Shown: in pieces, positions 8,877-64,000 of the stretch
Numbering within the stretch: the first letter of the stretch is position 1
How the letters are laid out: every line of letters starts with the position of its first letter
Origin: Rozella allomycis CSF55
Taxonomy: Eukaryota
NCBI GenBank assembly: GCA_000442015.1
Contig: KE560384.1
Coordinates: 62,001-126,000, forward strand
DNA: 64,000 nucleotides
Reading direction: 5' to 3'
Made by a program: the position numbers and the translations under genes
Notes under the pieces: generated by a model
Seen by the model: only the letters and a program-made list of their open reading frames with translations
The model's database searches: none
Told to the model about the DNA's origin: nothing

Positions 8877-10942
8877 ATGAGCAATAGTTTCTTTACTACA
8901 TGGAATTCATCGTGGACAGGTGGATTTTCACAGGGCAACGATGAAGATGATATTTTGGAAGATGAAAATGCAGAATACCAAGTAGGAGACACAAAAATAA
9001 CTTAATAAGAATTTTTGGAACTTTAAAGATTCTATATTATTTGCGATAGACTGTAACAAGGAGATGCAAGAGAAGGGATTTGTGTTGAATGCGATAAAGT
9101 GTGCGAGATCAGTATTGGAGAGTAAAATAATTAGCAGCGAAAATGATGTTGTTGGGATTTTGTTATATAATACGAAACAGACGAGGAATGTGTCGCAATT
9201 TCCATTGATTTATATGTTCCAGGATATGGACCAACCGGATGCGCAAAGGATTATGGAGTTGGAAAAGATGGAAAAGGATTTAGAGAATGGACAATTAAAT
9301 GTTACAGAATCATGTCAAGATGACCAAATGGTGTCTTATCAAGACTTGTTTTGGATTTGTTCAACGATATTCTCACAGAAAGCCCACAAGATGGGATCTA
9401 AGAGAATATTTTTGATAACAAATGAAGATCATCCGCATGCAACAAATCCAGCTCTTCAAACGAGTGCTTTAAGAAGAGCAAAAGTATTTTAATTGAAAAA
9501 GTATTTTTTAGGATTTGAATGAATTGGGGATTTCAATTGAACTCTTCATGTTTAATAAAGCGAATAAAAATTTTGATTTAAGTTTATTTTATAAAAATGT
9601 CGTTGAAGAGGAAGACATTCAAAATGCAGAATCAAAGTTTGAAGAATTGATGGTTCGAATTAGAAGAAAGGAAACTAAAAAGAGACCCTTGCAAAAAATA
9701 TTGTTTGGTTTGGGAGAAAATTTTAATATTTCTCTCAAAGTGTAATATTTTTAATAAATTTGTTATAGTTTTTTACTTTTCAGCCCAGCAAGAAAAGGAA
9801 ATCACGTTTACTTGGATTCAAGAACAAACAATGAAGTCAATGTCATGACAGAATACATTTGTAAAGATTCTGCATCAAATTTATTGCCTTCTGACATTAA
9901 AAACTATTTCGAATATGGAGGCGAAAAGGCAATCTTCAATAAAGACGAACTTTTGAAAATTAAGAAATTTGGCCCTGCTGGTAAAGCAAACAAAATTTCT
10001 TTCAAAAGGTTTAACTTTACTGGGCTTTAAACCAAAAGAAAGATTAAAATTAAAATACAACTTGAAAAATTCATATTTTATTTATCCAGATGACTCTCAA
10101 GTTAAACAAAGTTCTCTCTTCTTTTCTCATTTCCTTGATAAATTGGAAGCCAAGGGAAAAATCGCCATTTGTCGCTACATTGCTAGGGACTACAGCAAAC
10201 CATCAATCGTTGCTCTTTTACCACAAAAAGAACAATTTGATGAGAATGGAATTCAAATTAAACCTCCAGGGGCTCATTTAATAACTCTTCCATTTGCTGA
10301 TGATTTAAGATCTTTGCCAAACGATTCAATCCAAAAAGGTAATCTGAAATTTCTCAAATCAATCAGCCAATCACGATCAAGTTGATAAAGCAAAAGAAAT
10401 CGTTGCAAAGTTGACTCTTCATGGTGGTTTCAATTATGATAACTTTGAAAATCCATCAATTCAAAAGCATTATGCTGTCCTTCAAGCCTTGGCTCTCGAC
10501 AGAGAAAAATTGGAAGACTTCAATGATAACACAATTCCAAAATATGANTCAATGATAACACTATTCCAAAATATGAACAAATGGATAAAAGAATTTCTTC
10601 TCTCGTAGAAGAATTCAACACTTTAACTGGCTTGTCTAATATTCCCAACGAAGAAAAATTTAAAGCTACCACAAAGAAAAGATCGGCCAATGAAGAATCC
10701 AAAACAACCAAAAAGAAAAAGGCCGAAACTAATGATGAACCCGAAGAAAATGTTTCAATTGACGAAATTGTTAAATCTGCACATGCAAAGGGAACAGTAA
10801 TTTGATCACACTTTTGTTTCTTTAGTTGTCTAAATTGACCATTCCGAGTCTCAAAGAATATTTGGCGCATGTTGGGGTAAAACCCAAAAAATTGAGAAAA
10901 GCCGATTTGTTGGAACAAGTGGAAGAGCTTTTATCGCAATAA
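8877..10942 (+). CDS. KU70: Ku70 NHEJ DNA-end binding protein, 7 exons
   Basis: vWA DSILFAIDC, KRIFLITNEDHP, LTLLGFKP, FIYPDD, LPFADDLR, FENPSIQKHY, C-terminal SAP-like exon; 27-29 nt introns; assembly duplication at N10548. Confidence 0.95.
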
Positions 10943-15507: not shown

Positions 15508-16706
15508 TTATTTAAAATGTATATTAAATATTCCTGAATAGTAAAACATGGCAAGGAACCATAAAAAGAGAAGGAATATTCGAAGAATCAATTTTTGCAG
15601 AATCTTTCTCTCAACGTCTGTTTCAAAAATTAAACAAAAATTACCAGCAAAAGAATAAATAAATAAACTTGCATCTGCAGAGACACTCATTAGCTGATTA
15701 TCCAAACAATTGTATGCTAATGAAGTCACTGAAAAGGTATGGGCATTAAACCAACCATGTAAATACTATCATTTTAAACTGAAGATCCTACCTTTAGATT
15801 TTGGGAAAACAATTTAATTATTCCAGTGGAAAATCCTACGACGACGTAACCCTTAAATGCTAATATACAAGTTGCTGGCTTAACGTGAAGCTTTTTTCTT
15901 TTAACAAGCTTTAATGATGCATTATATTTCAAAAGATAAGAAACTTTCTTTGACACTTCGTTTTCTAAAACAAACAAATCTCCCTTGTCATTAAAGACTC
16001 CTGATCTAATCACGTGGCCGGGTGATGGAAGCAACGTGCTTGAAGGCTCCACTGGCTTTTCTTCTGGACTAAACTTTTCAAAAAAGAAAATTTGCTTTGA
16101 AGTTACTGCGACAAACTTTAAAATTTTATCAATTAATTTGTTTACGTCGTTTTCTTTGTTGAAAGAAATGTTGTAAATTTCCCCATCTTCAAAGGCAAAG
16201 TATGCCTTTTCTTGCCTTGATTTAGCATCCCATATTCGAATCTTTATGTTATTTTTGATTAATTCTTGCCTTTTTATCAATACCACAGGATAAGATATAT
16301 ATCATGTCAGTGGAATACACAAAACATTTCAAGTATGGATCTTGGGTATCGAAATCTCCTTTCCATGTTTCTTCCTTGATTCAAAAAAATCGCATTTAAT
16401 ATATTACGAATCATTTTTAAACTTTAATATTCCACAATCTTCATTAATACAGCATGCAATTTCTGGTTCCTCTGGGTGGGCAGCTACGCTCATTACAGCT
16501 TTTTTCTTTGTATCATGTTTTAGCTCCTCTATTATTTCACCATTCTTAATTTTGATTGTGGCCTGCAACTGAAAAACCAAAATTCTTACCAGTCCATTAA
16601 AAACTCCAGAGTTGACATTTCCGCCACCTCCCGAGACAACGAAACACTCCATAGGCTTTGAATAACAACAACTAAATAAAGGAAAGGATAGATTTTTGGT
16701 TTTCAT
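15508..16706 (-). CDS. SEC12: Sec12/PREB-like WD40 Sar1 GEF with C-terminal TM, multi-exon
   Basis: GGGGNVNSGVFN K-loop; DFDTQDPYLK...SCGIDKKIRIW; SVSAD; C-terminal TM; includes one GC-AG and one putative GT-TG intron. Confidence 0.8.
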
Positions 16707-20627: not shown

Positions 20628-23167
20628 TTATTTAAAGTAGTAGATTACATCGGTCGAGGTTACTTTGACATTTTTTAGGGAGGATTGCTGTTGCAGAAAG
20701 GAAGATTGAGATAAGAGCAGTAATTTATCAGCGTTGACAGATTTGAGATGTTCCACAATATCACTGCAAAATTCTTGATTATTTTTATCCATTAGGAATA
20801 TTTTTAAATTTGAATGACCGAGTGCTTCTTCTAATGTCCTAGAATAGCTCAGATTCCAAGCTACAATGTTCTTTGTAATTGACATTGTTTCGGCAGAAGG
20901 TGTTTCATAGCAAACAAAGTAATGCGCTTTAGATAAAAAGGCGAAATCAAGGACCAGATCAGTTACAGTTTTAGCCCTTTTGCTTTTTCGTTCAGACCCT
21001 GGCTGATAACTTGAATAATCAATTTCAGGAGTGGTTTCAATTTTGTTCCTTGAATGACTTAATTCTTGAAGTTCTTGAAAAGTGATGCATTCTATTGGAT
21101 TTCTATTGTAATAGACTTTAAGTATTCTTGGAAATCGTAGAGTAAAGAATTTGTTGGGTCTTTCTTTTGTAAATCCACTTCCTAAGAGTTCAAAAACGAG
21201 TGGAATTGAAAAAGTGACGTCTATTTTTGAGTTTATAAGATTTGTGATTTGATAGGAAACTTCCTTGTTGGGCAGATTGAGTCCATTGTGAAATTTGATG
21301 CTTGTGTTGTTTATTAAAGCAGAAATGGAACTTCTTTCATCTCTGGAGAGGCCCATTTCTACCGTAAAAACGATTGCGAAATTTGGACAAGAAGATATTT
21401 TATCCAATAATTCTTTTTTATTTGTTAAACACCCGACATGAAATATTTGAAACAAACCTGACGAATCAGCATTTGGAGCATATGAAGCTCCAACAATTGC
21501 AAAGTCACCAGTATCCCCATAACCGTCAATGTCTAAATAAAAATATACTAAATCCCCTACAATCCTTTTTGATTTTCCACCAATTAGTTCTATTGAAGGG
21601 TTTGTAGATCGAATCCAATGATTTTACAATGATTCCTTCTTCATTCTTTTGAATGTGTTCTTGAAAGACATTTCTCAATAAATCCAAATGATTTAATTTT
21701 GAGAAATCAATTATGAATGTTTTTGACAATTCACAATAATTAGGTATCGTTTGCACAACTTGCTCCAATTTAAGTCGGCGGTTTCGTAAGGTGCAATTAA
21801 GTAAACTTTCTCCATTCAAATACAAAATATCAAAAAATATTAAAATATAATGACGAATTCCATTTGTTACATCATTCGAATAAAATGATTTTCCTGGCGC
21901 CAAATCGGAAACGCCACCGAATGGTTCGATTGACTTAGTTCTCTCATTATAAACAAGAATTTCGGCCTCTAGAATAATTGATTCTATAGAATTGATTCTA
22001 GATTTTTCCTGCAAGCCTCTTTCTTTGATAAATTCAGGATCATGGCCAATTGACGCCCAAAGTAATCAAACTTGACAACATTAAAACAATTTTACTTGTG
22101 ACTTTTCAATCTATCAAATGTTGAATCTCTTTTGCTTTTGCTGAATATTTTTAACTTCTTTTTCCCTTCTTCAAACCATAAATGGGCTTGAACTCTTTTA
22201 AGGGCAAATGACATTCTCACCTTTCACCGTCATACTTTGTTTCAATCAAGCATTCTTGCCCCTGAAGTTTATTGGCAACGTATTCTAATGAATTGGGACG
22301 GCCGCATTGCATAATCCCGACATTCACACCCAATTCAGGATTAGAAAACTCTTTATTTAAATCAACGCTTTTATTTTGATCATATTCAAGGCCAATATCT
22401 TTGAACTTTTGAATACACATGCATGCGACTTTTAAATCATTCTTAATAGAATATATTGAAGAAAACATGGCATGGAAGTTATTCATGAAGGGTCTACAAT
22501 CTTCCATGTTAATTCTTAGATCTTTAAGTATAATTCTAATAAGCCACTTGATCTCATTCCCTGTTGATTTCTTTTCACATCCAAAATTTCACAATTACCA
22601 CAAACAAGTCTTTCAGGATTTCAATTTGTGATCGATGATTCTTCAACGTCACAAAATCATCCTTTGACACTTATTTAGAATTATTTTTTATGTATTACAT
22701 TTTGATCGATCATTCCAAGAGTATGCAAGCTGCAGTTCATCCAGCAAATCGTTTACATCCTTCACCGATATGCTAGACGATGGAGTTTCCTACTCTTAAA
22801 ATTTAAAGGTTCATACTATTATTTCTCTTTCTACTATGCTCCCCAAGTCACCTTGCATCCCTGCATCCAATCGCCACTCTAAGATTGCTCGCCCTCTCTC
22901 GGTATTCTCAAGATTAAATATATTAACAATAAAACTGCACAGTTTATTTTCCCTTAATCCATATTTGGAAGGGTCTTCAAATGGAACTAATAGTCGAAAC
23001 AGTCGATAAACTGAATCGACTTTTTCAAACTGTTCAAACCAACTTGAAATACAATCATTTAACACTTGGCTTTTTTCTTTAGCATTTTTTATAGATTTAA
23101 TCATGATGATTTTCTCAAAAAGTGAACATACAAAACCAAAGGGAGCACTGTCTGATGAAGAGAACAT
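20628..23167 (-). CDS. ATP-dependent DNA ligase (ligase IV-like family), 7 exons
   Basis: EIKWLIRIILKDL, motif I KYDGER, FSKSKRDST, FFDILYLNG, EEGIIVK, WWKIKKDY, FTLRFPRI. Confidence 0.9.
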
Positions 23168-43564: not shown

Positions 43565-46440
43565 ATGCAATTGACATTGTTAGCTGTCATTATTCAGTTC
43601 CTAATTTGTGTTAGCAAAGCAAATTCTTTGAATTCTTGCAATGTACATCCGCATAGTAGACATGATTGTGGATACGTAGGCATCAGCCCAGATGAATGTG
43701 AAGCCTTGAATTGTTGCTGGGCTCCATTGCTCACAACAAATCATCCATGGTGTTTTCATAGAAATAAGAATTGTGATGGATACCGCCTAAGCAAGTTGTG
43801 GGAGAGCAAGCACTCAATCGAGGCAAAGTTGGTCGCAATCAATCCTGACTGTTTGAAATTTGGAAAGATCGTTAAAAAATTGAAACTTCTTGTTGATTTT
43901 GAGGACAAGGATAGAATTCATGTAAAGATTGGTGACTGGAAGGGAGAAAGATACCAAGTCCCAGAATCTGTTTTTCCAAGGCCAAAAAGTCAAACTTTTG
44001 ATTTCTTACGTTTTTCAAAGGATAATAGCAAGATAAACTCAAAAATGGTGATTTTTAAAGAAAACAAGGAATATAGAATTGAGATTTTGACTGACCCTTT
44101 TCGATTTAAGATCATTAGAAAAGCAACAATGGAAACGATATTTGAATCTAAAGAAGAATTCATTTTTGAAGAAACTTACATTGAAATGTCCACAAAAATA
44201 AGAGCGGGATCACATTTGTATGGATTAGGAGAAATAGCTAGAAACTTTATAGTGAAAGATAATTCCATTTCAACACTTTTCACGAGAGATGCAGCGACAC
44301 CAGAAAATGAAAATTTGTATGGCTCCCATCCATTTTATCTTGAAATGAATAAAGGAAGATCACATGGAGTGGTAAAATATGTTTCACCTTGTAAAATAGT
44401 TTCTACTGAATAGCAATGCCATGGATGTTATTAAGACCTCTACTTCTTTGACATATAAATTGGTCGGCGGGATTCTTGATTTTTATATCTTCATGGGTCC
44501 TTTGCCAACTGATGTGATTTCACAGTATTGGCAAGTTATTGGAGCGCCGGCTATGATACCTTATTGGGCTCTTGGTTTTCATCAATGCAGATATGGTTAC
44601 AAAACTATTTGGGAAGTAATGGAAGTTGTTGATAACTTTGAAAAACATCAAATTCCTTTGGAAACAATGTGGGTTGACATAGAGTACATTATTTGTCTTC
44701 ACATAACAATAGATACATGGATGGATACAGAGATTTCACTTTCGATCCTCAAAGATACCCCGTTCAAGTTGTTCGTAAATTTGTTGATAAATTACATTCA
44801 AATGGACAAAAGTTTACCTTAATAGTTGACCCTGGTATTAAATTGGATTTGCCTCAAAATTAGGTATTAAAATTGACCCCGGTTTAAAATCATACGACAA
44901 TGGAATAGAGAAAGATATTTTCCTTAAAAATAACAATGGAGACAACTTGATTGGAAAAGTTTGGCCCGGGCTTGTACATTTTCNTTGGAAAAGTTTGGCC
45001 TGGATTTGTACATTTTCCAGATTTCTTTCACCCCAAAGCTCAAGAATGGTGGAACGAATGCTTTGCCGAATTTTATGATCACGTTCCAGTTGATGGTACA
45101 TGGATTGATATGAATGGTAAATATTGAACTGTTATTTAAGAAAGAATTGGCAAACTTTTGTGATGGCGATTGTTTCAATCCTCCAGTGGATTCTGAAAGC
45201 ATCAACTTTACTCCATATAGAATTCACAATGGATGGGCCAGATTACCGCTATTCACAAAAACCACCCCAATGGATGCAGTTCATTATGGGGGTCATTTAG
45301 AATTTGATGTTCATAATTTGTTTGGTTTAATGGAAGCCAAAGCTACTTTTAAAATGTCAACCACATTTCATCCAAACAAAAGACCCTTCATTCTTTCAAG
45401 GTCAACTTTTCCTGGTACTTATATTTTCATAATTAACAATAGGTTCTGGTAAATATTCATATCATTGGACTGGCGATAATTGGTCTACGTGGCGCCAAAT
45501 GCATCTTTCAATTCCAGCAATATTAAACTTTAACATGTTTGGGATTCCAATGGTGGGTGCCGACATTTGCGGATTCAATGGTCAAACCACTGAAAATCTT
45601 TGTGCAAGATGGATGGCTTTAGGTGCCTTTTATCCATTTTCCAGAAATCACAATTCAATTGACGCTGAATCTCAAGAACCTTATCTATGGCCAATCGTTT
45701 CAAAAGTTTCTAAAAAGTATTTACGTTTAAGATACAAGTTATTGCCTTATTGGTACACCCTGTTTTACGAATCATCTGAGTTTAAAAAGGTTGTAATTCA
45801 ACCCTTGTTCTTTGATTTCCCAAATGATGAAATCTCTCTTTCTATAGACACGCAATTCATGTTAGGAAGCAGTTTGATGGTTTCACCTGTACTAAAAGAC
45901 TCGGAAAGCGTTAACGTATATTTTCCAAAAGCTAAATGGTACGCGTTGGAAAGTTTTGAGGCTATTCCATCCGATGGATACCATCAAATACATGCATCAA
46001 TTGATTACCTCCCTGTCTACATTAAAGGGGGTCGTATAGTACCAATTCAAGGATTCGCCATGGTCACTGAGAAAGCAAGGAAACAACCATTTCATTTGTT
46101 AATTGCATTAAGTGAAAATGGTAAGGCATCTGGATCATTGTACATTGATGACGGAGAATCATTGAATATTAAATCACATTATTCTTACATTCATTTCAGT
46201 GCGAACATTAAAGATAATTATGGATCGATTTCATCAAAAGGAAAGTTTGATTACGCAGCACCTCAAATATGCAGCGTAAAAATACTTGGAATGAAATGGA
46301 AACCTGCAAAAATACAAATCAGTGGCAATGAAATAACCGAAAGAAATTCTTCATATGATTCAACCAAGGGTGTATTGCAAATTGAAAACATTGAATTGCC
46401 GACTTCAAGCGAATTTATTATCCACTTGATCAACTTTTAA
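43565..46440 (+). CDS. Secreted/lysosomal GH31 alpha-glucosidase with N-terminal trefoil domain, 6 exons
   Basis: Signal peptide; trefoil RHDCGY...C...CCW...[22 protein letters not shown] nucleophile; HWTGDN; GADICGF. Confidence 0.95.
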
Positions 46441-53009: not shown

Positions 53010-54516
53010 GGGCGAAAAACTTTACTTGGTTCGTTTCGTACAACGACATGCTGAATTTCGATTAGCTGAATTTGAAGCTCTGTGCAAATTATTTGATATA
53101 AAATACAAGGCGCACACGGAATACACTGATCTTGTATAGTTATTTTTTGAAAATGATGTAGAGTCCGTTTTGGATTGTTTCTTTCAGATCTGAAGATGAT
53201 ATTAGAAAAATATTGTCGAGGTCTTTTTTGATAAAGTATATAGATATGGTTTGAACTAGTAGATGTGTGTTGGAGCATTATGCGTGCAGCGAACAATCGT
53301 TAGATCATTTGGCAGAATTAGTTAAAGATATACCGCAAGATGTTTTCGTAAGATTATTTGGTTCAATCGAGTCAGGAAGTTTATAGAAACGATACATTTA
53401 AATTTGTTATAGACACTTTTGCTACCTCAATGTCTGGCAAGGAAAAGATTGACACTATAGAAAAGTTTGCTTATCTGCCATTTGACGGGGACATTGACTT
53501 GAAAAATCCAAAGAATACTTTTCACGTGATAATCGATAACAGACACACAATAGAAAAGGAACCAAGAGCGTTCTATTTTGGAAGATGGATTGGAGATGGA
53601 AATAGAGAGTTTATCGATATCTATAATGTCAAAAAGAGAAAATACATTGGCACTACAACAATGGACGCTGAGCTGTCGCTGATAATGTCAAATATGGCAC
53701 TAGTCAAGAAGGGGTCTCTGGTTTACGATCCATTTGTTGGCACTGGTAATTTATAATAATTGATATTGTGGGCAGCTTTCTAGTTACTTCATCTTGCTTT
53801 GGGTCTTATTCATTCGGTTCAGATATTGATGGGCGGCAGATTAGAGGCAAAGATGGAAGTATGTTTAATGATTCACATTTAATAGAAAAATCTTTGAAAT
53901 CTAATATAGCACAGTACAAGCTACAAAATAGAATTCTGGGTACAGTTGTTTGTGATATTACTCAACATCCATTTAGGCCCGATGGTTTCCGTTTCGATGC
54001 AATTATCACTGATCGTAAGTATTATTTTTTCTATTCAAAAGCTCCTTACGGTGTTAGAGCAGGCGCGAAAAAGATTATGATGAAGGAGGGCGGTTTCTTC
54101 AAAAATACTGAAGAGTAAAAATGAAATATTTTCTATTAAATAGCGGTAAAAGTTTTTATCCTGCAACCATTCCTTACGAACTGCCAGATGTTATTTACGA
54201 TTTACTAAATTTTTCTTCAGTATATCTTGAAATTGGTGGCAGGCTGGTGTACTGGTTACCAGTAATTGATGATGAAGAGTAAATTTATTGCAATGGGTGT
54301 AATAGGGAAAATGATTTAAAAGAGCCTCCTAATCATCCATGTTTTGACATGATCTCAAAATGCCCTCAAATATTCGGCGGCTGGCGAAGGATTCTTGTTA
54401 CAATGGAGAAAAAGTGCGATCCTGAATCTATAGACTTTAATATCAAAAAAGATCATTTGGTGGAACCTTTTAGAAATCGGTTTTTCACGAAAATGAAATT
54501 AAACAGCGAAGCATAA
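53008..54516 (+). CDS. TRM11: tRNA m2G10 methyltransferase Trm11, 9 exons
   Basis: YLVRF...HAEFRLAE, KRKYIGTTTMDAELS, DPFVGTGS, GSDID, DAIITDPPYGVRAG, GGRLVYWLP. Confidence 0.96.
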
Positions 54517-54527
54517 TATAAATAAAT

Positions 54528-54580
54528 TGATTAAATTAAATGATTAAGTTAAGTGATTAAAGTAAATGATTAAATTGAAT
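54528..54580. repeat. 13-bp AT-rich tandem repeat (tgattaa(a/g)ttaa(a/g), about 4 units) between convergent genes
   Basis: tgattaaattaaa tgattaagttaag tgattaaagtaaa tgattaaattgaa. Confidence 0.7.
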
Positions 54581-54620
54581 TATTGAATGAAATTTATGAC
54601 TCGCGATAAAAACAATATGT

Positions 54621-55727
54621 TCAAAAGTCTGGCACTGTATTGATGAATTGTGGCGATTTTAATCTAAAATACACCATTGTTAACAAACCTAGGAGAATAA
54701 CACCACCGACAAACGAATAGATAATTTTTGGCATTAAGTTTGACACATCCTCGCGATGAGCCAGTTCTTTCATGTCTAAATATGTTCTCTTCATAAATTC
54801 TGGATAATTTTCGTTGACTTCATACTCATAAATGCTGCTTTTGAGATCGTCAGGAGTTATATCATATAAAAGAGAATTTACATAGTTCTGGAACGTTGTT
54901 GCAAAACTTAATGAGGCGAATAGAGTATTCACAGTTAACTGGTTTTGAAAATAGTAATTTACGTATTCAATTACTGAAGAAAGTACTTCTTTTTCTATCT
55001 TTCCAGCCGATTCTTCAACGGACAATTTAAGCATAAGAACAAATGTACTTTCGACTATATCGCACACTGATGAAATGAAGGGACTTTCGGGTACTTCTGA
55101 ATATGCTGGAGGTTTTATTAAAGCATTCTTAAGAATCTTATGCTCGTATACAGCTTTTAAAAGATGAACAAATGGTAATTCTTTAGTGTTGCGTAAAATA
55201 TCAAAAACTGAATTGTATTCATAATCTTTCGCGTGTCTTTTCACCATAATTGGTATGAGCTTCGAGTTATCTGTCATCATAGAAGCAAGCAGCATAATAT
55301 CATCATTGCTAATTTTTTCTTTTTTGGACAAAGTTCCACTGGGTACTTTATACGACCCGTTATCTTTCAATCCCAATAAATTTAGATGATTTCGAGAATT
55401 TTCATTAGGTGCAATCGCAAACAAAAAGTCGACAAAAAGATTCTTATTTGCCTCACTCAGCGAACTCTTCAGTATCACTTTCAAAGTCGAAGCAGACGAA
55501 ATAAACTTAAATACGTGCTCTTCAATTTCATAATTCTTGGTTAGTTCATTAAATGCTTTATGAAACGCAAAATCAGATAATCTTGAAATCAAGTTGTCGT
55601 TTAAATATTCGATGTTCAGATTATCTATCCTTGACATAAGATTTACACCGAGTTCATTATATCGTGCTGTATCACATAAATACAACGAAAAAAACCAAAA
55701 GAAAAGTAGTGCACTTGAAAATTTCAT
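54621..55727 (-). CDS. Type I membrane protein of unknown function; intronless
   Basis: Signal peptide MKFSSALLFFWFFSLYLC from ATG 55727; C-terminal TM IIYSFVGGVILLGLLTMVYF. Confidence 0.75.
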   Translation of the reverse strand: MKFSSALLFFWFFSLYLCDTARYNELGVNLMSRIDNLNIEYLNDNLISRLSDFAFHKAFNELTKNYEIEEHVFKFISSASTLKVILKSSLSEANKNLFVDFLFAIAPNENSRNHLNLLGLKDNGSYKVPSGTLSKKEKISNDDIMLLASMMTDNSKLIPIMVKRHAKDYEYNSVFDILRNTKELPFVHLLKAVYEHKILKNALIKPPAYSEVPESPFISSVCDIVESTFVLMLKLSVEESAGKIEKEVLSSVIEYVNYYFQNQLTVNTLFASLSFATTFQNYVNSLLYDITPDDLKSSIYEYEVNENYPEFMKRTYLDMKELAHREDVSNLMPKIIYSFVGGVILLGLLTMVYFRLKSPQFINTVPDF

Positions 55728-56020
55728 CAGTGGCTCCAATGGTGGCTGTGTATAGCTATATTTAAAATGTCGCGTTTTTGATGTATTAATAGTATTCTTC
55801 ATAACAAACTTATTAAAGTATTTTCTGCAATTACCTTGGTATATTTCACAGCCTTTATTTGCACCTTCTGAATTGAGACTTGCCTTGGCATTTCCTGCTT
55901 CATTGTACCAAATATAAGTACGAATATTGAAATATTTCAAATATTTTCTTCCTTTCCTTTACATTTTCATTTGTTGCAAGTTTCTTTCCTGTGTTTTTTT
56001 ACGAAAAATCAAATTTTGTG

Positions 56021-56691
56021 ATGTCAAGAAATACAGCATTAAAAAGGCTCATGACAGAGTACAAAGGTAAATAGCTTCAAAATTCATATATTTTAAAGAA
56101 CTTACATTACACGCTCCTGATGGAATAACTGCCGGTAATAAGCATATCATCTGGTGATAGGGCCCGTTTCTGAAAATAACTTTTTTGTGTGGGAAGCTTT
56201 AATAGCGTACCTTTTGATTGAAATATAAAGTAGAGGACCTGAAGATACACCATTCGAAGGGGGTGTTTTTGTTGCAAAACTTACATTTCCAACTGATTAC
56301 CCGTTATCTCCTCCAGAAATGAGATTTACGAGTGAAATATTCCACCCCAATATCTATTCGGATGGAAGAGTGTGCATTAGTATCCTGCACGCACCAGGGG
56401 ATGATCCTAATCAATATGAAAGTAGTTGTGAAAGGTGGAGGTAAAAAAAATAGTGCGATTTATTACTAGTCCTGTACAATGTGTTGAGAAAATACTTCTT
56501 TCTGTTGTATCGATGCTCGCAGGTAAGTAATGAATTATATTTGTGATAGAACCAAACGTAGAGAGTGGAGCGAACATAGATGCTTGCGTAATAATTTATT
56601 GTCGTCTTTAATGAAGAAAATTTATAGAAACGATATAAATGAATATAATAGAATAGTTAGGGAATGTGTGAAGAAAAGTCTCGGCTTATAG
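56021..56691 (+). CDS. UBC7: Ubiquitin-conjugating enzyme Ubc7/UBE2G2, 7 exons (absent from the ORF track)
   Basis: Spliced [54 protein letters not shown]...ERWSPVQ. Confidence 0.95.
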
Positions 56692-56736
56692 TCAATTCAA
56701 AATTGCATCATAAAGAATATGTAAATTTTAATTTTA

Positions 56737-59702
56737 TTATTTCTGTACTTCGTAGCCAGCATAGCCATGGGGATTTGCTTCTCTTATGATACGAAGAAAA
56801 ACATCTTCCAATGTTGAATGAGAAATACCCCACGCTTTAATTAGTCCTAATCAATACTATCAATCTTCTTATACCGTCTGGATTGGTTTCAAGATAATCT
56901 ACAAATTTGGGAATATATGGAACTTCATTCGGTGAGATGTTGTAAATTAATGATCCTGCTGTTTCATCTTCTAATTTGGCTTCTCTCATCCTTGCAGATA
57001 CCTGATCTTTAACTTTATTTGAGTTTTTAGGGGAAATAACTAGAGAAATTCGGTACCCTGAACCAAACCTTGCCTTGAGATTTATAGATGACCCTAAAGC
57101 CCGGATACGACCATGAGCCATGATCGCAATTTTATCACCCAAAACATCGGCTTCTTCCATTGAATGTGTAGTTAAAATTACAGCCCTGTCTTTTTTAAAC
57201 TCTTCAATGAATGTCCAAACATGTCGTCTATTTAATGGATCCATTCCAGTTGTGGGTTCATCCTACAGAATTGTTAATTATCATTAAATACCATGTAAAC
57301 AACGTGAGGATCACCTAGCGTACTTAATATCAAAGATAATCGTCGTTTCATTCCTCCGCTGAAAGTTTTAACATGAGCGTTCACAACCTATTAAAATATT
57401 TACTACAAAAATACTTTATCCAGTTTGACCATGCTTATCCTTTCTTTCATCGTTTTTCTAACTTTGCTCAAAGAAAGGTTCTTTATTCCCGCGTAAAGCT
57501 CAACATGTTCCCAGGGTGTTAAATCTTCAAACAAAATATCAAACTTGGTTATCAAATTTGTTTGAATGATTACTTGAGGACAAACTCCCATAATTTCACG
57601 TATTTTATGCATTTCAAATCTAACACTAAAGCCAAAAATAAATGCATCCCCGTCTGTTAGTCGAACCGCCCCTGCAAGAATGTTTTGGAGAGTGCTCTCT
57701 TAATATCAATCAGTAAGATTTACTTTGCCAGCTCCATTTTGTCCCAAAAGAGCCAATAATTTCCCATTTTCAAGAGTTAAACAAACATGATTCACAGCTA
57801 GTTTGGATTTAACCGATGAAAATATTCCAGATGAATAAACTTTCTTCAAATTTGTTATTCTTATTGCAAATAGCTTTCTCAAGTCAAATGCCTCGTCTCG
57901 TTCTTTTTCAACGTCAACATCCTCGTTGTATGGCTATATTTTGGCTTTAACGATTATACTATTTTTATTTTTTGACTATTTTTTAATTGTCTCATTGCTC
58001 TGGAATGGGTGAATGCATGAAATCCATAATAAGCTGGGTTCAAGAAAAACAGCGGACCTTTTCTATTTCCGATCGCATCAGGGAAAACTCTATCAAAATA
58101 TCTATCAAAATTCTGTCATGAAATTACAATGCGAGAATAAAATAAATGCCTGACAATACAAATAGACATACAAGTGACTCTATTGTTGGAGGAATGTATG
58201 GTGAGTCTCCATAATTCGGGATATAAACTTCAGGCAAAGGAATAAAAAGATCTTTCATCCTGAATCCAGGTCCAGCTACTATCATTTCACTAATTGAGTA
58301 TTTGAACAATCTATTACGTCACTGGATCTAACGGTCCCTGAGCCAATTGTTTTATATCTGTAGTTATTTTTCCAAAGTGAAAAAATGGAATGGCGTAGAA
58401 AAGGTACTTAATGATACTTGGAGTTATTTTTGACCACCATAGGTATGCCAAGTATGTTTCAGAGAATATTATGGACGTGAAAATCAACCCCACAATGAAA
58501 ACTCCAATCCCACAAAGCAAAGCTGTTTTAATTTTTAAGCAGAAAGTAGTTATCAAATAGCCCAAATTTATCATGGCTAAATTGAATGCAAAGAGTGTAA
58601 CAAAAATAACCTATCTTATACGCAGAAATATAGTACTATAAAATCTGTATTTCTGATTAAATCAAATTTAAAAATGTATCCCAATGCAATAGTGACTAGT
58701 CCGTTAATCGCCGCCAAGGTTGAATGGAAAAGCAGCCAACTCAGCCAGTAAGAAATGGACTATATCTATTATAACGTAAACCGCTACCTTCAGTCCCATC
58801 ATGTCCATACTAACTCTTGTCTTTCTATCTTTATCAAGCATGACATGGTTTATCAAAGCCATAAAAATAAACATAGATGCACTGTATGTAAACGATAGGA
58901 TAAATCTGGAAACAACTTGATCGGAATAACCCAAAGAGGGAATAACCGGCCAATCACGAACGGTCACATCGATATTCAATGGGTTGGAATTACCATCTCC
59001 ACTAGTTAGGACAGTAATGATTGCCTCATCTATTCCTCTGATCAAGGAGTGAAGAGATGATCCAAAAGAATCAATTGCATGTCCATCCGAACTCTTTTGG
59101 CGGACTAGTGTAGAGTTATACCAAATTAAATATTGAAAATTGGAACTATCTTGACTAAACGTAATTCCGAATTGGGTAATGTTCGGATTCACTAGAACGT
59201 ATTGGTAAAGAAATTGTTCATTTGGTACAGCCACAGCNNNNNNNNNNNNNNNNNNNNNNNNNNNNNNNNTCTATGAAAATTATGTATTTAATCTACTTGT
59301 CAATGGCGATGAATACAGCGATGTCGGGTTACCGCCAATACTCTGAAGTCTTGCGTTGTTCTTGGTTATGAAGGTTTGTATTATGTTGTCGTTTATTGAA
59401 GATTTTGGTGTGTACATTATGTCAATGCAGTTCCCCTTTTTCATAATCATTTAGGTTTTTACTGGACAGCTAATCAATGGGCTCAAAGAGCTCGAAGGCG
59501 GATTGTAATTGTATGTTTTAATCGCGTTACTTTCAATTGATTGTAATGACCAAAGAATGATGTATATTAGTGTGGGAGCTATAACCAATTGTACAATAGT
59601 GGCTTTCCAATGCCTCATCTAATATAAATTTGAATAAATATGTACAGCCAATATTATATTCTTTTTGAATAATACATATGTTTGCAAAAAATAGAGAAAC
59701 AT
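56737..59702 (-). CDS. Half-size ABCA-family transporter (one TMD + one NBD), about 14 exons, gap at 59238-59269
   Basis: QTYVLFKKN...RHWKAT; MMGLK..SYWLSW; LLGQNGAGKS; MGVCPQFDIL; FSGGMKRRLS; DEPTTGMDP; ILTTHSMEEAD; start may extend to about 59809. Confidence 0.92.
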
Positions 59703-59893
59703 TGTATGTTTGGACTAATGAAATTTTGGATTTCGCTATTTGCAAGTTTCTTTCTCAGCGCAATAATATGTATCAGGTTCATTGAATTGAATTCGGCTTT
59801 GCCATACATGTTTTCTTGCTCAATAATTGACAATGAAGATTTTCGACTTCAAAAATAAATNAATGAAGATTTTCGACATCAAAAATAAATTTC

Positions 59894-62603
59894 ATGGATT
59901 TGTTGAGACTCGATTTTCAAAAGGAAATAGCTATAGATATATCAGATAATGATGCACTTTTTGTATTAGCCAAGGGAATAGGTCACGATTCAATAATATC
60001 AACGTTGTTAAAAGCGTTTGCGTCACCACAGGTCCTTGTGTTCCTTGTACACGCATCATCTGAACAGGAACAATCATTTATTTCTATTTTTAAAGCGCAG
60101 GGATGGGATTTAAATAATTTCAAATGTGTTAATTCTGACCTTACTTCCAAGGCAAGGTAAAGATCATTAGCCTTAATCAAAGATCTCAAATGTATGAAAA
60201 GGGTGGTGTTTTTAGTATAACATCGAGAATTCTAGTCATGGATTTGTTGAAAGAGCATATTCCCATTGAAAAAACCACAGGGATGTTGATATTGAATGCA
60301 CATACAATTACTGATGAAACATTAGAAGCATTCGCTATGAGGTTATATCGGCAAAAGAATAAGAATGGATTTATTAAAGCGGTTACTGAAAAAGCGGAAG
60401 GATTGACTATTGGATTTGCAAGGTTGGAAAAAACTCTGAAATGTTTGTATTTAACAGATGTAAAGTTTTATCCACGATATGAAGTTCGAATCGCTCAGCA
60501 GTTGGAAGAAAAAGAGACAGAATTGATAGAAATAAATATTGGAATGACTGATAAGATGAAAGACATTCAATTGGCTTTGATAGAAGTTATGGATAAATGT
60601 ATAAAAGAATTAGCCAAGATGCACAAAGAACTAAATATTGAAGAAATGAATGTAGAAAATGGATATTTTAAACATTTTGATGCAATAATTAAACGACAAC
60701 TGGATCCAATATGGCACACAGTTGGTTTGCGTTCCAAACAATTAATGTCAGATTTGGTCGATTTAAGGAATTTAATACAGTAATATTAAAATAATTTCAT
60801 TTAAATAGCTATTTGAATAGTACAGACTGCGTAACATTTTACTCGTATTTGGAAACGATTCTAACGAGCCAAAAAATGAATGAAATGGGAACGAGTTGGG
60901 TTTATTTTGATGCTGCAAATGTTGTGTTTGAGCTTGCCAAAGAAAGAATAGTAGAAAAGAGCCAAGGAAAGCTTAAGCTGACTTTAGAGAAGAATCCTAA
61001 ATGGGATGTTTTGAATCAAGTTTTAGATGAAATTAAACAAGAAACTGCAAATTTAGATCAACAAAGAATATTGATTTTAACTCAAGATTCCAAACATTGT
61101 AGACAGCTGAAGAAATTACTTGTTGATGGGCCGAATAAACTTTTGCGTGAAGTGATACAAGAAAATGAGAATCTTAAAAGCCAATTGAGGCCCATTCTGG
61201 ATGTTGGGTTGATTAAAGAACCTTTGGAAAAGAAACGGAAGCGAGAACTTCGAATGCCTGAAATGAACAATGTTGATTTGGTGTAAATTTACATTTAAAT
61301 TATTTTTAGTAAATTGCTGGTTGAGGAGCCAATTGATTATGAAAGTTCTGTTCAAACTGAAGACAAGGAGTTTAAAATCATTGATGAGCCGATTATAAGA
61401 ATTCAAACATTTTCAGATATAAAGTTTGGCTCAATATTGAATGAATTTATGCCTGATTTTATTATTCTAATGGAACCCCATTTAGAAACAATTCGATTCA
61501 TTGAAGTAAATAGCTGAAATCAAAGTCATTAGACTTTCAATGCTACATTCAAAGAACATTCTTTAAGAATTTATTTATTTTCTTATGAATATTCTGCAGA
61601 AGAGCAAAAATATCTTACATCAGTTAGACGTGAGAAAGATGCATTTCAACGTTTAATTAGAGAAAAATCTGTACATATTTAACTCTTTATATTCATAGGT
61701 TATGGCTGTCGGTAAAGAACAAGATGGAAAAGTTCAGCTCATTGATGACGATGACTTGACAAATGTTAACACTAGAATAGCTGGCGGAAAAGTTGAATTT
61801 GAAGCACATAAAGTAAAATTTCATTGTTTGTTAAAAACTTGATAATTATTGATTCGAGAGAATTTCGAAGCTCTCTTCCTTCAATCCTGCACAAGAAGAA
61901 CATTGACATTGAGCCGGTCACTATCGAAGTTGGAGATTATATTCTCACACCCAAAATATGTGTAGAAAGAAAATCTATTCCTGATTTAATATCATCATTG
62001 AATACTGGACGGCTGTATACCCAAGTGGAAGCGATGTGTAGATATTATGATCATCCTATAGTCCTAATTGAATTCGATCACCAAAAAGCATTTTCTTTAC
62101 AAGTAGTTTAATTTTTATCTATAATTATTAGTCACAAGAGTTTTATTCCTCTGAAATCAATTCTACTAGCGTATCGTCTAAACTCGCCTTGCTAATACTT
62201 CATTTCCCAAAATTAAGACTGATTTGGTCTTCAGGAGTTTACGAAACTGTTGAAATCTTTATGGATCTCAAAAAAGGTCAAGAACAGCCAGATTTAAATA
62301 AAGTTTTACTCACAGGTGGAGATTCTTCAATAGAAAATGATGAATCGACTAACTTTCTCTTCAAAGTATAAAATCATGAATCAAATTGATAGGATATTTT
62401 GCTAACTACGCCAGGTGTTACNGGATATTTTGCTAACTATGCCAGGTGTTACCATTTACAATGTTAGGACAATTTTGCAATCAGTCAAGAATTTGAAAGA
62501 TTTGTCTAACAAAGATTTGAAGTCTTTAAAAGCCTTAATAGGGGATGGCCCTGGAGAAAAGTTACATTCATTTATACATAAAAACTGGACAAACAAGAAT
62601 TAA
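59894..62603 (+). CDS. RAD1: XPF/Rad1/Rad16 structure-specific endonuclease, 9 exons
   Basis: [47 protein letters not shown]...[10 protein letters not shown]-terminal HhH. Confidence 0.95.
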
Positions 62604-62674
62604 GTATTAAAGAATAAAAGATTTCTTCATTATTTAAAAGTGTTCCCTTCATATTTGTTTTTCTTAACAACCTC

Positions 62675-63640
62675 ATGATCAATGAAAATGTAAACTTTCA
62701 TATAAACCTAAACAAGGTCAATTATGAGAGACTAAAGACCTGGTCCAAATATTTAAACTTAGAATGGCACCCGTTTCTAGCAAAGAAATATTTTGAAATA
62801 GTGCAAAATAAAAGGGAATGTGCCTACCATCACAAAATTATCAATGATTCTCATAGAACTCTAAAGACTTGTACCGATTTCAAACAGAAGGTATCAGATA
62901 CATCAATTACCCGCGTTTTAAATGCTTCGGTGCATTTATTAGAAGAAGTTAACAAGCATGGTAATAATTTACACAAAGAGACACCTTAGACGACTATAAA
63001 TTCACGTACGTCCAGGGAATGAATGTTTTACTTGCGCCTTTCATATTTGAGTTTGGCGAAGCACCATCATTATTCATGTTTTCCAAATTCATTCACATTG
63101 TATGCCCCACATATGTTCAACCGCAGTTGCAGGGTGTCCATGCATCAATTAAAGTATAAATGTAACTATAATGTACCTAGTTGTTTGACGAGATATTTAA
63201 AAGATGTGATGAAGAACTGTACAATTATTTAAAGAGTAAAAATATTTCTAGCCAGATCTTGGCTTTTGCTCGTAATTAACTGCTTTTTATAAGTACAGCA
63301 TTAATGACTTTTTCAGCGTGCCTATCTCCTTTTGACGAAGTTATTAAATTATGGGATTACTTTATGACCTATGGGTTCCATTTACATATTATTTCATTCG
63401 TTTGCAACATTGTAAAACATAGAGAGGAATTATTGGCGACAAAAACGTAAATATATTTTTCAGTCAGTTAATCATAGTCCTAGCAATTTACTAAGAGCAA
63501 ATTGGCCAACCGTAGATGCTAGCTTTTTGATAAAGGCAACATCGGCTTGTGCGATGACAATTTCAGGCCAGTTTATGAATTTGCTTAAATCTCACATGAT
63601 CGATATGAAGGTATGTGCAGAAATAAATAACGAATGTTAA
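62675..63640 (+). CDS. BUB2: Bub2/Cdc16-like TBC-domain GAP, about 6 exons
   Basis: KIINDSHRTL, YVQGMNVLLAPF, CPTYVQPQLQGVH, LMTFSAC...EVIKLWDYFMTYGFHL. Confidence 0.85.
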
Positions 63641-63758
63641 TGAATAATTCATGTAATGTTCCCATAACACTGAACACTCCTCAGTTGTCACAATTTTAGG
63701 CTAAATATACCCATCGTTATGTCATGTATTTGTGTACATGACACCAAAAATATTCAGA

Positions 63759-64000
63759 TCAAATCGGGAATTCAGGGGTCAGCCATTCGCTCCCATCTAG
63801 GAGTTTCATCGGAACGGTCGATTTTGGAATTCGCACATAATCACCTTGTACCCAAAACCAATTTATTGAAAATTGATGATATATAATTGCTCGTTTTGCT
63901 AGATCTATGATATTCTTTGATAAATTCTTTGACTCTGTATCCTTTGGTTCCTGTTTTTTCTCCAATTTACGATCACCAATGCAAAAATACCAAACATCAA
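63759..64000 (-). CDS. 3' end of a gene continuing beyond the window
   Basis: Open frame ending at 63759 convergent on BUB2; no recognisable motif. Confidence 0.4.
   Translation of the reverse strand, partial: DVWYFCIGDRKLEKKQEPKDTESKNLSKNIIDLAKRAIIYHQFSINWFWVQGDYVRIPKSTVPMKLLDGSEWLTPEFPI

Follow-up and report, generated by a model that had tools for sequence, protein, structure and literature searches.

A candidate GT-TG intron in the XPF gene of Rozella allomycis

The XPF/ERCC4 gene of Rozella allomycis CSF55 raises the question of where an intron ends when coding sequence resumes directly after a TG and no AG lies between that TG and the donor. The gene is contained in a stretch of 64,000 nt (contig KE560384.1, positions 62,001 to 126,000 of the forward strand); the whole stretch is called the window here, and all positions refer to it. 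An initial annotation, made from the letters of the window, had proposed that 61813-61841 is removed as a GT-TG intron. The analysis described below indicated that this interval is probably a real U2-type spliceosomal intron of XPF that is cut GT...TG, and that TG is likely to serve as a working 3' splice site in the ultrashort introns of Rozella. The reading is drawn from the coding sequence that resumes right after the TG, from a donor and a length that are typical of the window, and from AG alternatives that destroy invariant catalytic residues. The features of the locus are listed first.

59894-62603, plus strand: XPF/ERCC4 gene, 9 exons encoding 818 aa, no internal stop between ATG and TAA, profile score 826 bits (60 homologues)
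59894-60156, 60183-60779, 60809-61282, 61310-61505, 61533-61670, 61699-61812, 61842-62102, 62132-62365 and 62424-62603 (stop included), plus strand: XPF exons
61813-61841, plus strand: proposed GT-TG intron, 29 nt, GTAAAA...CTTG
61813-61817, plus strand: 5' splice site; its type, GTAAA, is the most frequent of the window (32 of 104 introns)
61840-61841, plus strand: TG at the proposed 3' splice site, preceded by T (61839, position -3) and followed by A (61842, position +1)
61842-62102, plus strand: exon opening the ERCC4 nuclease domain, matched to human XPF in the Protein Data Bank (PDB)
61857-61860, plus strand: first two AGs 3' of the donor, giving introns of 46 and 48 nt, both out of frame and beyond the 26-31 nt class

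The XPF intron and its coding boundary

The 29 letters of the interval (GTAAAATTTCATTGTTTGTTAAAAACTTG) open with GTAAAA and close with TG. They contain no AG, as the initial annotation had stated: within 61800-61889 AG begins only at 61803, 61812, 61857, 61859 and 61869, all outside 61813-61841. The first AGs lie 46, 48 and 58 nt from the donor and none is in frame, the nearest one 3' of the TG ending at 61858, 17 nt further on. When the upstream frame is left unspliced it meets TGA at 61840-61842, also as claimed, with TAA next, and the downstream frame opens at 61842 with ATA ATT ATT GAT TCG AGA GAA TTT CGA AGC. The G at 61841 is the sole G within positions 26-31 of the intron. Folding of the RNA around the intron gave a z of 0.82, with no notable structure. 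The eight introns of the gene measure 26, 29, 27, 27, 28, 29, 29 and 27 nt, and the focal one is the only one that is not GT-AG.

Removal of the 29 nt was said to restore both frame and motif, and this was borne out by the alignment of the exon from 61842, which matches human XPF from its first residue (residues 684-769, E 2e-35). The D...RE and GDxnERKxxxD residues of the ERCC4 nuclease domain are present in this exon region. The gene was then scored against a profile of 60 full-length homologues, which were the first 60 by id among 77 returned proteins of 780-960 aa. The residues D, R, E, F, R, S, L and P that stand right after the TG are invariant in 60/60 of these homologues, and since all eight are in frame the stretch 3' of the TG is coding and not intronic. 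Two canonical introns that also keep the frame open were identified.

61830-61858, plus strand: rival canonical intron, 29 nt, GTTAA...GAG, with IIIDSR replaced by VKFHCL
61813-61895, plus strand: rival canonical intron, 83 nt, used in both deposited models, 18 residues removed

The products of the possible splicings gave the following scores against the XPF profile.

Intron ending in AC, 26 nt: 826.9 bits
Intron ending in TG, 29 nt: 826.1 bits
Intron ending in AA, 23 nt: 825.1 bits
Intron ending in TA, 32 nt: 820.0 bits
Canonical intron 61830-61858: 810.7 bits
Deposited 83-nt intron: 767.5 bits
86-nt intron: 763.1 bits

The invariant nuclease columns survive only under the TG, AC, AA or TA readings. 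Both in-frame GT-AG alternatives remove the catalytic Asp of XPF and fall 15 and 59 bits below the 29-nt TG reading. The statement that no AG is available therefore holds if the conserved motif is to be kept, but not as a statement about the reading frame. The 26-nt AC ending that had been named as an in-frame alternative was confirmed.

The position of the boundary was compared with that in 77 environmental XPF loci obtained by a metagenome scan, which were used for intron position only. None of the 77 was more than 75% identical over its best aligned segment and none came from Rozella. Among the 26 loci inspected, most of which match from query residue 1, nine (L015, L018, L020, L023, L024, L025, L028, L029 and L049) carry upstream stop codons and an AG directly before the first codon of [IVM][IVL]VD. 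In position and phase these nine introns agree with the focal intron of Rozella, and their end is the boundary given by the TG reading. The other 17 loci read through and are intron-free at this point (e.g. L008-L011, L013). The end point of these nine AG introns favours a 29-nt intron ending in TG over the 26-nt (AC) and 32-nt (TA) endings.

The ultrashort intron class and two further candidates

The introns of the window were counted with a home-made dynamic-programming gene parser that used a length prior and resolved overlaps between the strands. The parser kept 45 genes with 105 GT-AG introns, of which 104 were 26-31 nt long and the remaining one 38 nt, so that the length of the XPF intron fits the local class as had been claimed. 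The lengths were distributed as 25 introns of 26 nt, 24 of 27 nt, 30 of 28 nt, 20 of 29 nt, three of 30 nt and two of 31 nt. With a flat length prior (15-200 nt), 45 of 85 introns fell at 26-29 nt and the rest were scattered, with at most four at any other length. The donor begins with GTA in 93% of the 26-31 nt introns, and the acceptor triplets (n = 104) were TAG in 56, AAG in 27, CAG in 13 and GAG in 8. Twelve introns skip an internal AG ending at position 24 or 25, which suggests a hard intron minimum near 26 nt. The focal intron, with 29 nt and a GTA donor, conforms to this class. Codon-usage log-odds were too weak to tell gene models apart, and simple open-reading-frame-bridging counts were discarded as too noisy. 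The available text of PMC6349667 describes a Rozella gene with putative introns of ~30 nt, while the word 'intron' is absent from PMC5701793. A literature search on Rozella, with supplements and the original genome paper outside its reach, returned nothing on non-canonical splicing.

Among the kept genes the parser flagged eight introns that are not GT-AG. Two of these are assembly artefacts, 59240-59296 (a run of N) and 10605-10633, an apparent orphan intron that is the product of the duplication at N 10548. Three fall in doubtful models or start regions, and three lie in clearly real genes, all on the minus strand. Two other apparent orphan introns, 45117-45144 and 45415-45442, proved canonical once inspected. 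With doubtful models and artefacts set aside, TG and GC are the only non-GT-AG types that remain in kept genes. Spurious antisense models from the same parser gave 9 different endings in about 10 picks, with TG once. The three introns in clearly real genes are as follows.

22067-22095, minus strand: second GT-TG candidate (GT...TTTG), 29 nt, in the gene of an ATP-dependent DNA ligase, GTAAAATTGTTTTAATGTTGTCAAGTTTG, supported by homology
16382-16407, minus strand: third candidate GT-TG intron (GT...TTTG), in a WD40-repeat gene, GTAATATATTAAATGCGATTTTTTTG, 26 nt, open frames only
16242-16269, minus strand: GC-AG intron, 28 nt, in the same WD40 gene, directly downstream of the TG candidate

The ligase gene was recognised by Pfam as DNA_ligase_A_M (E 3e-27) and has PDB matches to ligases 1, 3 and 4; a PDB search with its 32-aa exon gave no useful match. 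Use of the AG at intron position 25 would bring a TGA into frame, and the in-frame canonical alternative is an intron of 77 nt that deletes LLWASIGHDPEFIKER. The exon after the TG opens at a block conserved among 40 relatives (H in 38/40, I/L, A/S, L in 32/40, G in 28/40). A ligase profile without the Rozella row gave 121.5 bits for the 29-nt TG ending, 115.6 for TT at 32 nt, 114.0 for CT at 35 nt and 104.7 for AG at 77 nt, placing TG 5.9 bits above the next in-frame ending and 16.8 bits above the canonical 77-nt intron. In the database a model 96% identical to the ligase exon (P0242), apparently a deposited version of this gene, runs from ETKYD straight into EAEILVYN, and part of KYDGER is missing from it (window 22195-22225). 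This model suggests that canonical-only gene calling failed across the ligase TG candidate.

Around the WD40 candidate the frame is open, for 106 codons on one side and 43 on the other. Since AG begins none of the codons in the exon downstream, the donor of 16382-16407 has no in-frame AG there, and the nearest AG gives an intron of 33 nt that runs into a stop. Removal of the TG and the GC-AG intron from this gene gives ...YILSCGIDKK joined to IRIWDAKS, which resembles the last part of a WD repeat. The deposited models treat 16242-16269 as coding (QELIKNNIK).

All three TG candidates end with TTG followed by A, that is with T at -3 and A at +1, and in each of them the G of the TG is the sole G at intron positions 26-31. 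The AG near the TG is 17 nt downstream in XPF, 4 nt upstream in the ligase and 7 nt downstream in the WD40 gene, outside the 26-31 window in every case. The GT-TG reading of XPF is thus favoured by the conserved exon, the orthologous boundary, the donor and length, and two more GT...TTG candidates; the two frame-preserving GT-AG introns had been overlooked in the initial annotation.

Opposing evidence and rival explanations

Several observations weigh against a GT-TG intron in XPF. The length prior of the census parser itself favours 26-29 nt, and homology cannot split the TG ending from the 26-nt AC or 23-nt AA endings (see scores above). Pairwise scores of the ligase are mixed over 112 relatives, TG being favoured by 50 and the 77-nt AG by 62; of the 15 relatives with the highest scores, 13 prefer TG, with margins of 7-25 bits. 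The WD40 candidate is without homology support: no homologue of the gene was found outside Rozella, Pfam gave only sub-threshold generic WD40 matches for its exons, and the deposited models splice canonically with one GT-AG intron of ~137 nt. In the available text of a study of human TG 3' splice sites, TG does not occur as the only 3' splice site of an intron, and mutation of AG to TG led to the activation of AGs nearby (PMC2374985). Lastly, the two contigs that bridge the XPF site, one from run X1 (61323-62053, 731 nt) and one from run X5 (61288-62032, 745 nt), do so without a gap and hence exclude an indel, but carry 11 and 24 letters, respectively, that differ from the window over the whole contig.

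The alternative that survives best, although we consider it unlikely, is that T at 61840 is not the functional state. It would be an assembly or base error, or a variant of one haplotype while the other haplotype retains AG and makes normal XPF. This explanation draws on the condition of the draft assembly, which was compared over 54000-64000 with contigs of four public sequencing runs, individual differing letters being located up to 59990. All four runs look like DNA, and none of their joints skips an intron. In 10 kb their contigs depart from the window at well over 100 positions (~1.5%), some of them shared by all runs, and at many positions a pair of contigs with unequal depth is present. 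These differences suggest that the draft assembly is a mosaic of two diverged haplotypes, in which an erroneous or haplotype-specific T is possible. The window also holds nine single-base Ns and one 32-base N run, and five of the nine single Ns (10548, 14566, 44984, 59861 and 62422) lie between nearly identical copies of 24-33 nt in direct orientation (1-3 mismatches), which look like mis-joined heterozygous bubbles. On the other hand, an error or an allele would need the same rare AG-to-TG change at three introns in 64 kb, and no other disabling splice-site change was found in the real genes of the window. Transitions are frequent where the reads depart from the window, whereas A>T is a transversion, and the rest of the XPF gene is intact.

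Further features of the assembly were seen around the gene. The window is contradicted by all three deep runs at 54974, at 54984 and by an inserted T after 55969. Reading frames are interrupted by the duplications at Ns; examples are the gene at 8877-10942 and XPF, where the artefact lies just after the last intron.

62392-62422: artefact of the assembly within XPF (a 30-mer present twice, plus N); contigs of all four runs skip these 31 bases

In runs X1, X2 and X3 a contig tracks the XPF exon to 61989 and then continues with at least 255 letters absent from the window; a structural variant, an incomplete second copy or a wrong join in the graph could each account for this divergence. A protein search for the read-derived XPF fragments gave none that was near-identical among the 120 matches listed.

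It is also improbable, and more so than an error or allele at 61840, that the DNA is correct and the spliceosome uses an AG, either through 61830-61858, through the 83-nt intron or at the AG at 61857/58 with a frameshift, leaving an XPF copy that is inactive or decaying. The deposited models of Rozella allomycis CSF55, RKP19690.1 (P0002) and EPZ37000.1 (P0121), belong to one cluster and both use the 83-nt intron; the best local alignment of RKP19690.1 with the nuclease exon shows 100% identity over 82% of the exon. The intron 61830-61858 has a length of the class (29 nt) and was the choice of the parser once non-AG endings were penalised, GAG acceptors occur in 8 of 104 introns, and activation of neighbouring AGs is what the human mutants showed. 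Against this, the stretch that AG splicing would skip encodes, in frame and without gaps, the eight residues invariant in the homologues, which is unexpected for an intron, and the other eight XPF exons are intact. The AG isoforms score lower by the 15 and 59 bits given above, 83 nt is far beyond the 26-31 nt class, and a GTTAA donor occurs in just two of the 104 census introns, 61830-61858 being one of them. The deposited models leave the true C-terminus of XPF (stop 62601-62603) via a long intron (region 62561-62830) and run on into a downstream TBC/RabGAP gene that starts near 62675, giving a fused protein of 1017-1023 aa. Because of this fusion to the next gene they are unreliable here.

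Very little weight is given to an in-frame end of the XPF intron at another non-AG dinucleotide, at 26 nt (AC), 23 nt (AA) or 32 nt (TA). Although the profile scores of these endings are nearly equal to that of TG, the orthologous introns in 9 of 26 loci end exactly at the TG boundary, and 23 nt is below the class minimum of 26 nt. With TG the terminal G is retained, and use of TG as a 3' splice site is documented; for GT-AC introns with such a donor, the sources as available gave nothing beyond annotation counts from one fungus. For the ligase, TG led the next ending by 5.9 bits. A U12-type intron was rejected, as the donor is ordinary (GTAAAATTTC) and the extended 5' consensus is lacking, and so was frameshifting or read-through at the site, where read-through meets TGA TAA in the wrong frame.

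Possible mechanism and comparison with known splicing systems

If 61813-61841 is spliced GT...TG, a mechanism based on distance can be proposed. In introns of 26-31 nt the 3' splice site would be set mainly by its distance from the 5' splice site and the branch point, such that only a dinucleotide inside a narrow window could dock for the second catalytic step. In spliceosome structures the terminal G of the intron contacts the first G of the intron during this step, and this terminal G would be kept in TG introns. Replacement of A by U at -2 might be tolerated where the window has no AG, the sole G there being used. An AG outside the window, 17 nt downstream in XPF, may still help the site to be recognised early, a role that has been proposed in human TG-AG tandems. 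The predicted outcome is a full-length, catalytically competent XPF. It is possible, although our confidence in this broader claim is lower, that in Rozella allomycis a 26-31-nt ruler and a terminal G suffice and that UG is a constitutive acceptor in ~2-3% of introns. The share of UG would then be ~100 times that in another fungus, in a situation unlike that of humans, where TG is never alone, and public gene models restricted to GT-AG would be wrong at every UG-acceptor site.

The proposed GT-TG intron in XPF is a variant of a known rare kind, and its interest rests mainly on genome-wide recurrence. If TG were the sole productive acceptor, the rule derived from humans, by which TG can act as a 3' splice site only next to an AG that is itself in use, would be broken. 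Distance-based choice of the 3' site in ultrashort introns would, if true, be testable in a small genome with thousands of 26-31-nt introns. Canonical-only annotation yields faulty public models, as in the deposited XPF, which is fused and has lost the catalytic Asp, and the ligase model, which lacks part of KYDGER. Such models could pass for gene decay in a parasite lineage that is often used for comparative studies of gene loss.

The closest known system is that of the human TG 3' splice sites, for which the available text of Szafranski et al. (2007, PMC2374985) describes a pyrimidine at -3, a purine at +1 and a companion AG within 28 nt. The XPF intron shares the U2-type GT donor, the TG end, the pyrimidine at -3, the purine at +1 and an AG within 28 nt. 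One obvious difference is that in the human tandems, as described there, TG is only an alternative (~0.01% of candidate motifs), while in Rozella the TG product alone encodes the conserved protein. The XPF intron also differs in its length of 29 nt and in the apparent frequency of TG, which is 2-3 in ~108 introns of one window. Other GT-TG cases, in GNAS, TSPYL2 and ARS2, are mentioned in the accessible parts of PMC4176328 and PMC1557818. In Ganoderma lingzhi, GT-TG introns number 22 (0.024%) and GC-AG introns make up 1.85%, according to the available text of PMC11590231. The comparison with GC-AG introns is apt in that a one-base departure from GT-AG is tolerated by the major spliceosome, and the GC-AG intron 16242-16269 adjoins a TG candidate. 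GC-AG is however a change of the donor, common and well documented, whereas the TG change in Rozella is at the acceptor.

Among U12-type introns rare GT-TG cases are known, the text available from PMC1557818 giving one in mouse. Unusual terminal dinucleotides are a property that these introns can share with the XPF intron. Their extended 5' consensus is [AG]TATCCTT, which the XPF intron does not carry; it starts with GTAAAATTTC like the introns that surround it. Ultrashort introns of constrained length occur in Paramecium, in Stentor and in chlorarachniophyte nucleomorphs, where they are described as GT-AG, and we know of no report of routine use of a TG acceptor in them. The introns of Rozella resemble those of these three systems in forming a very narrow length class, suggesting that length is read by the splicing machinery.

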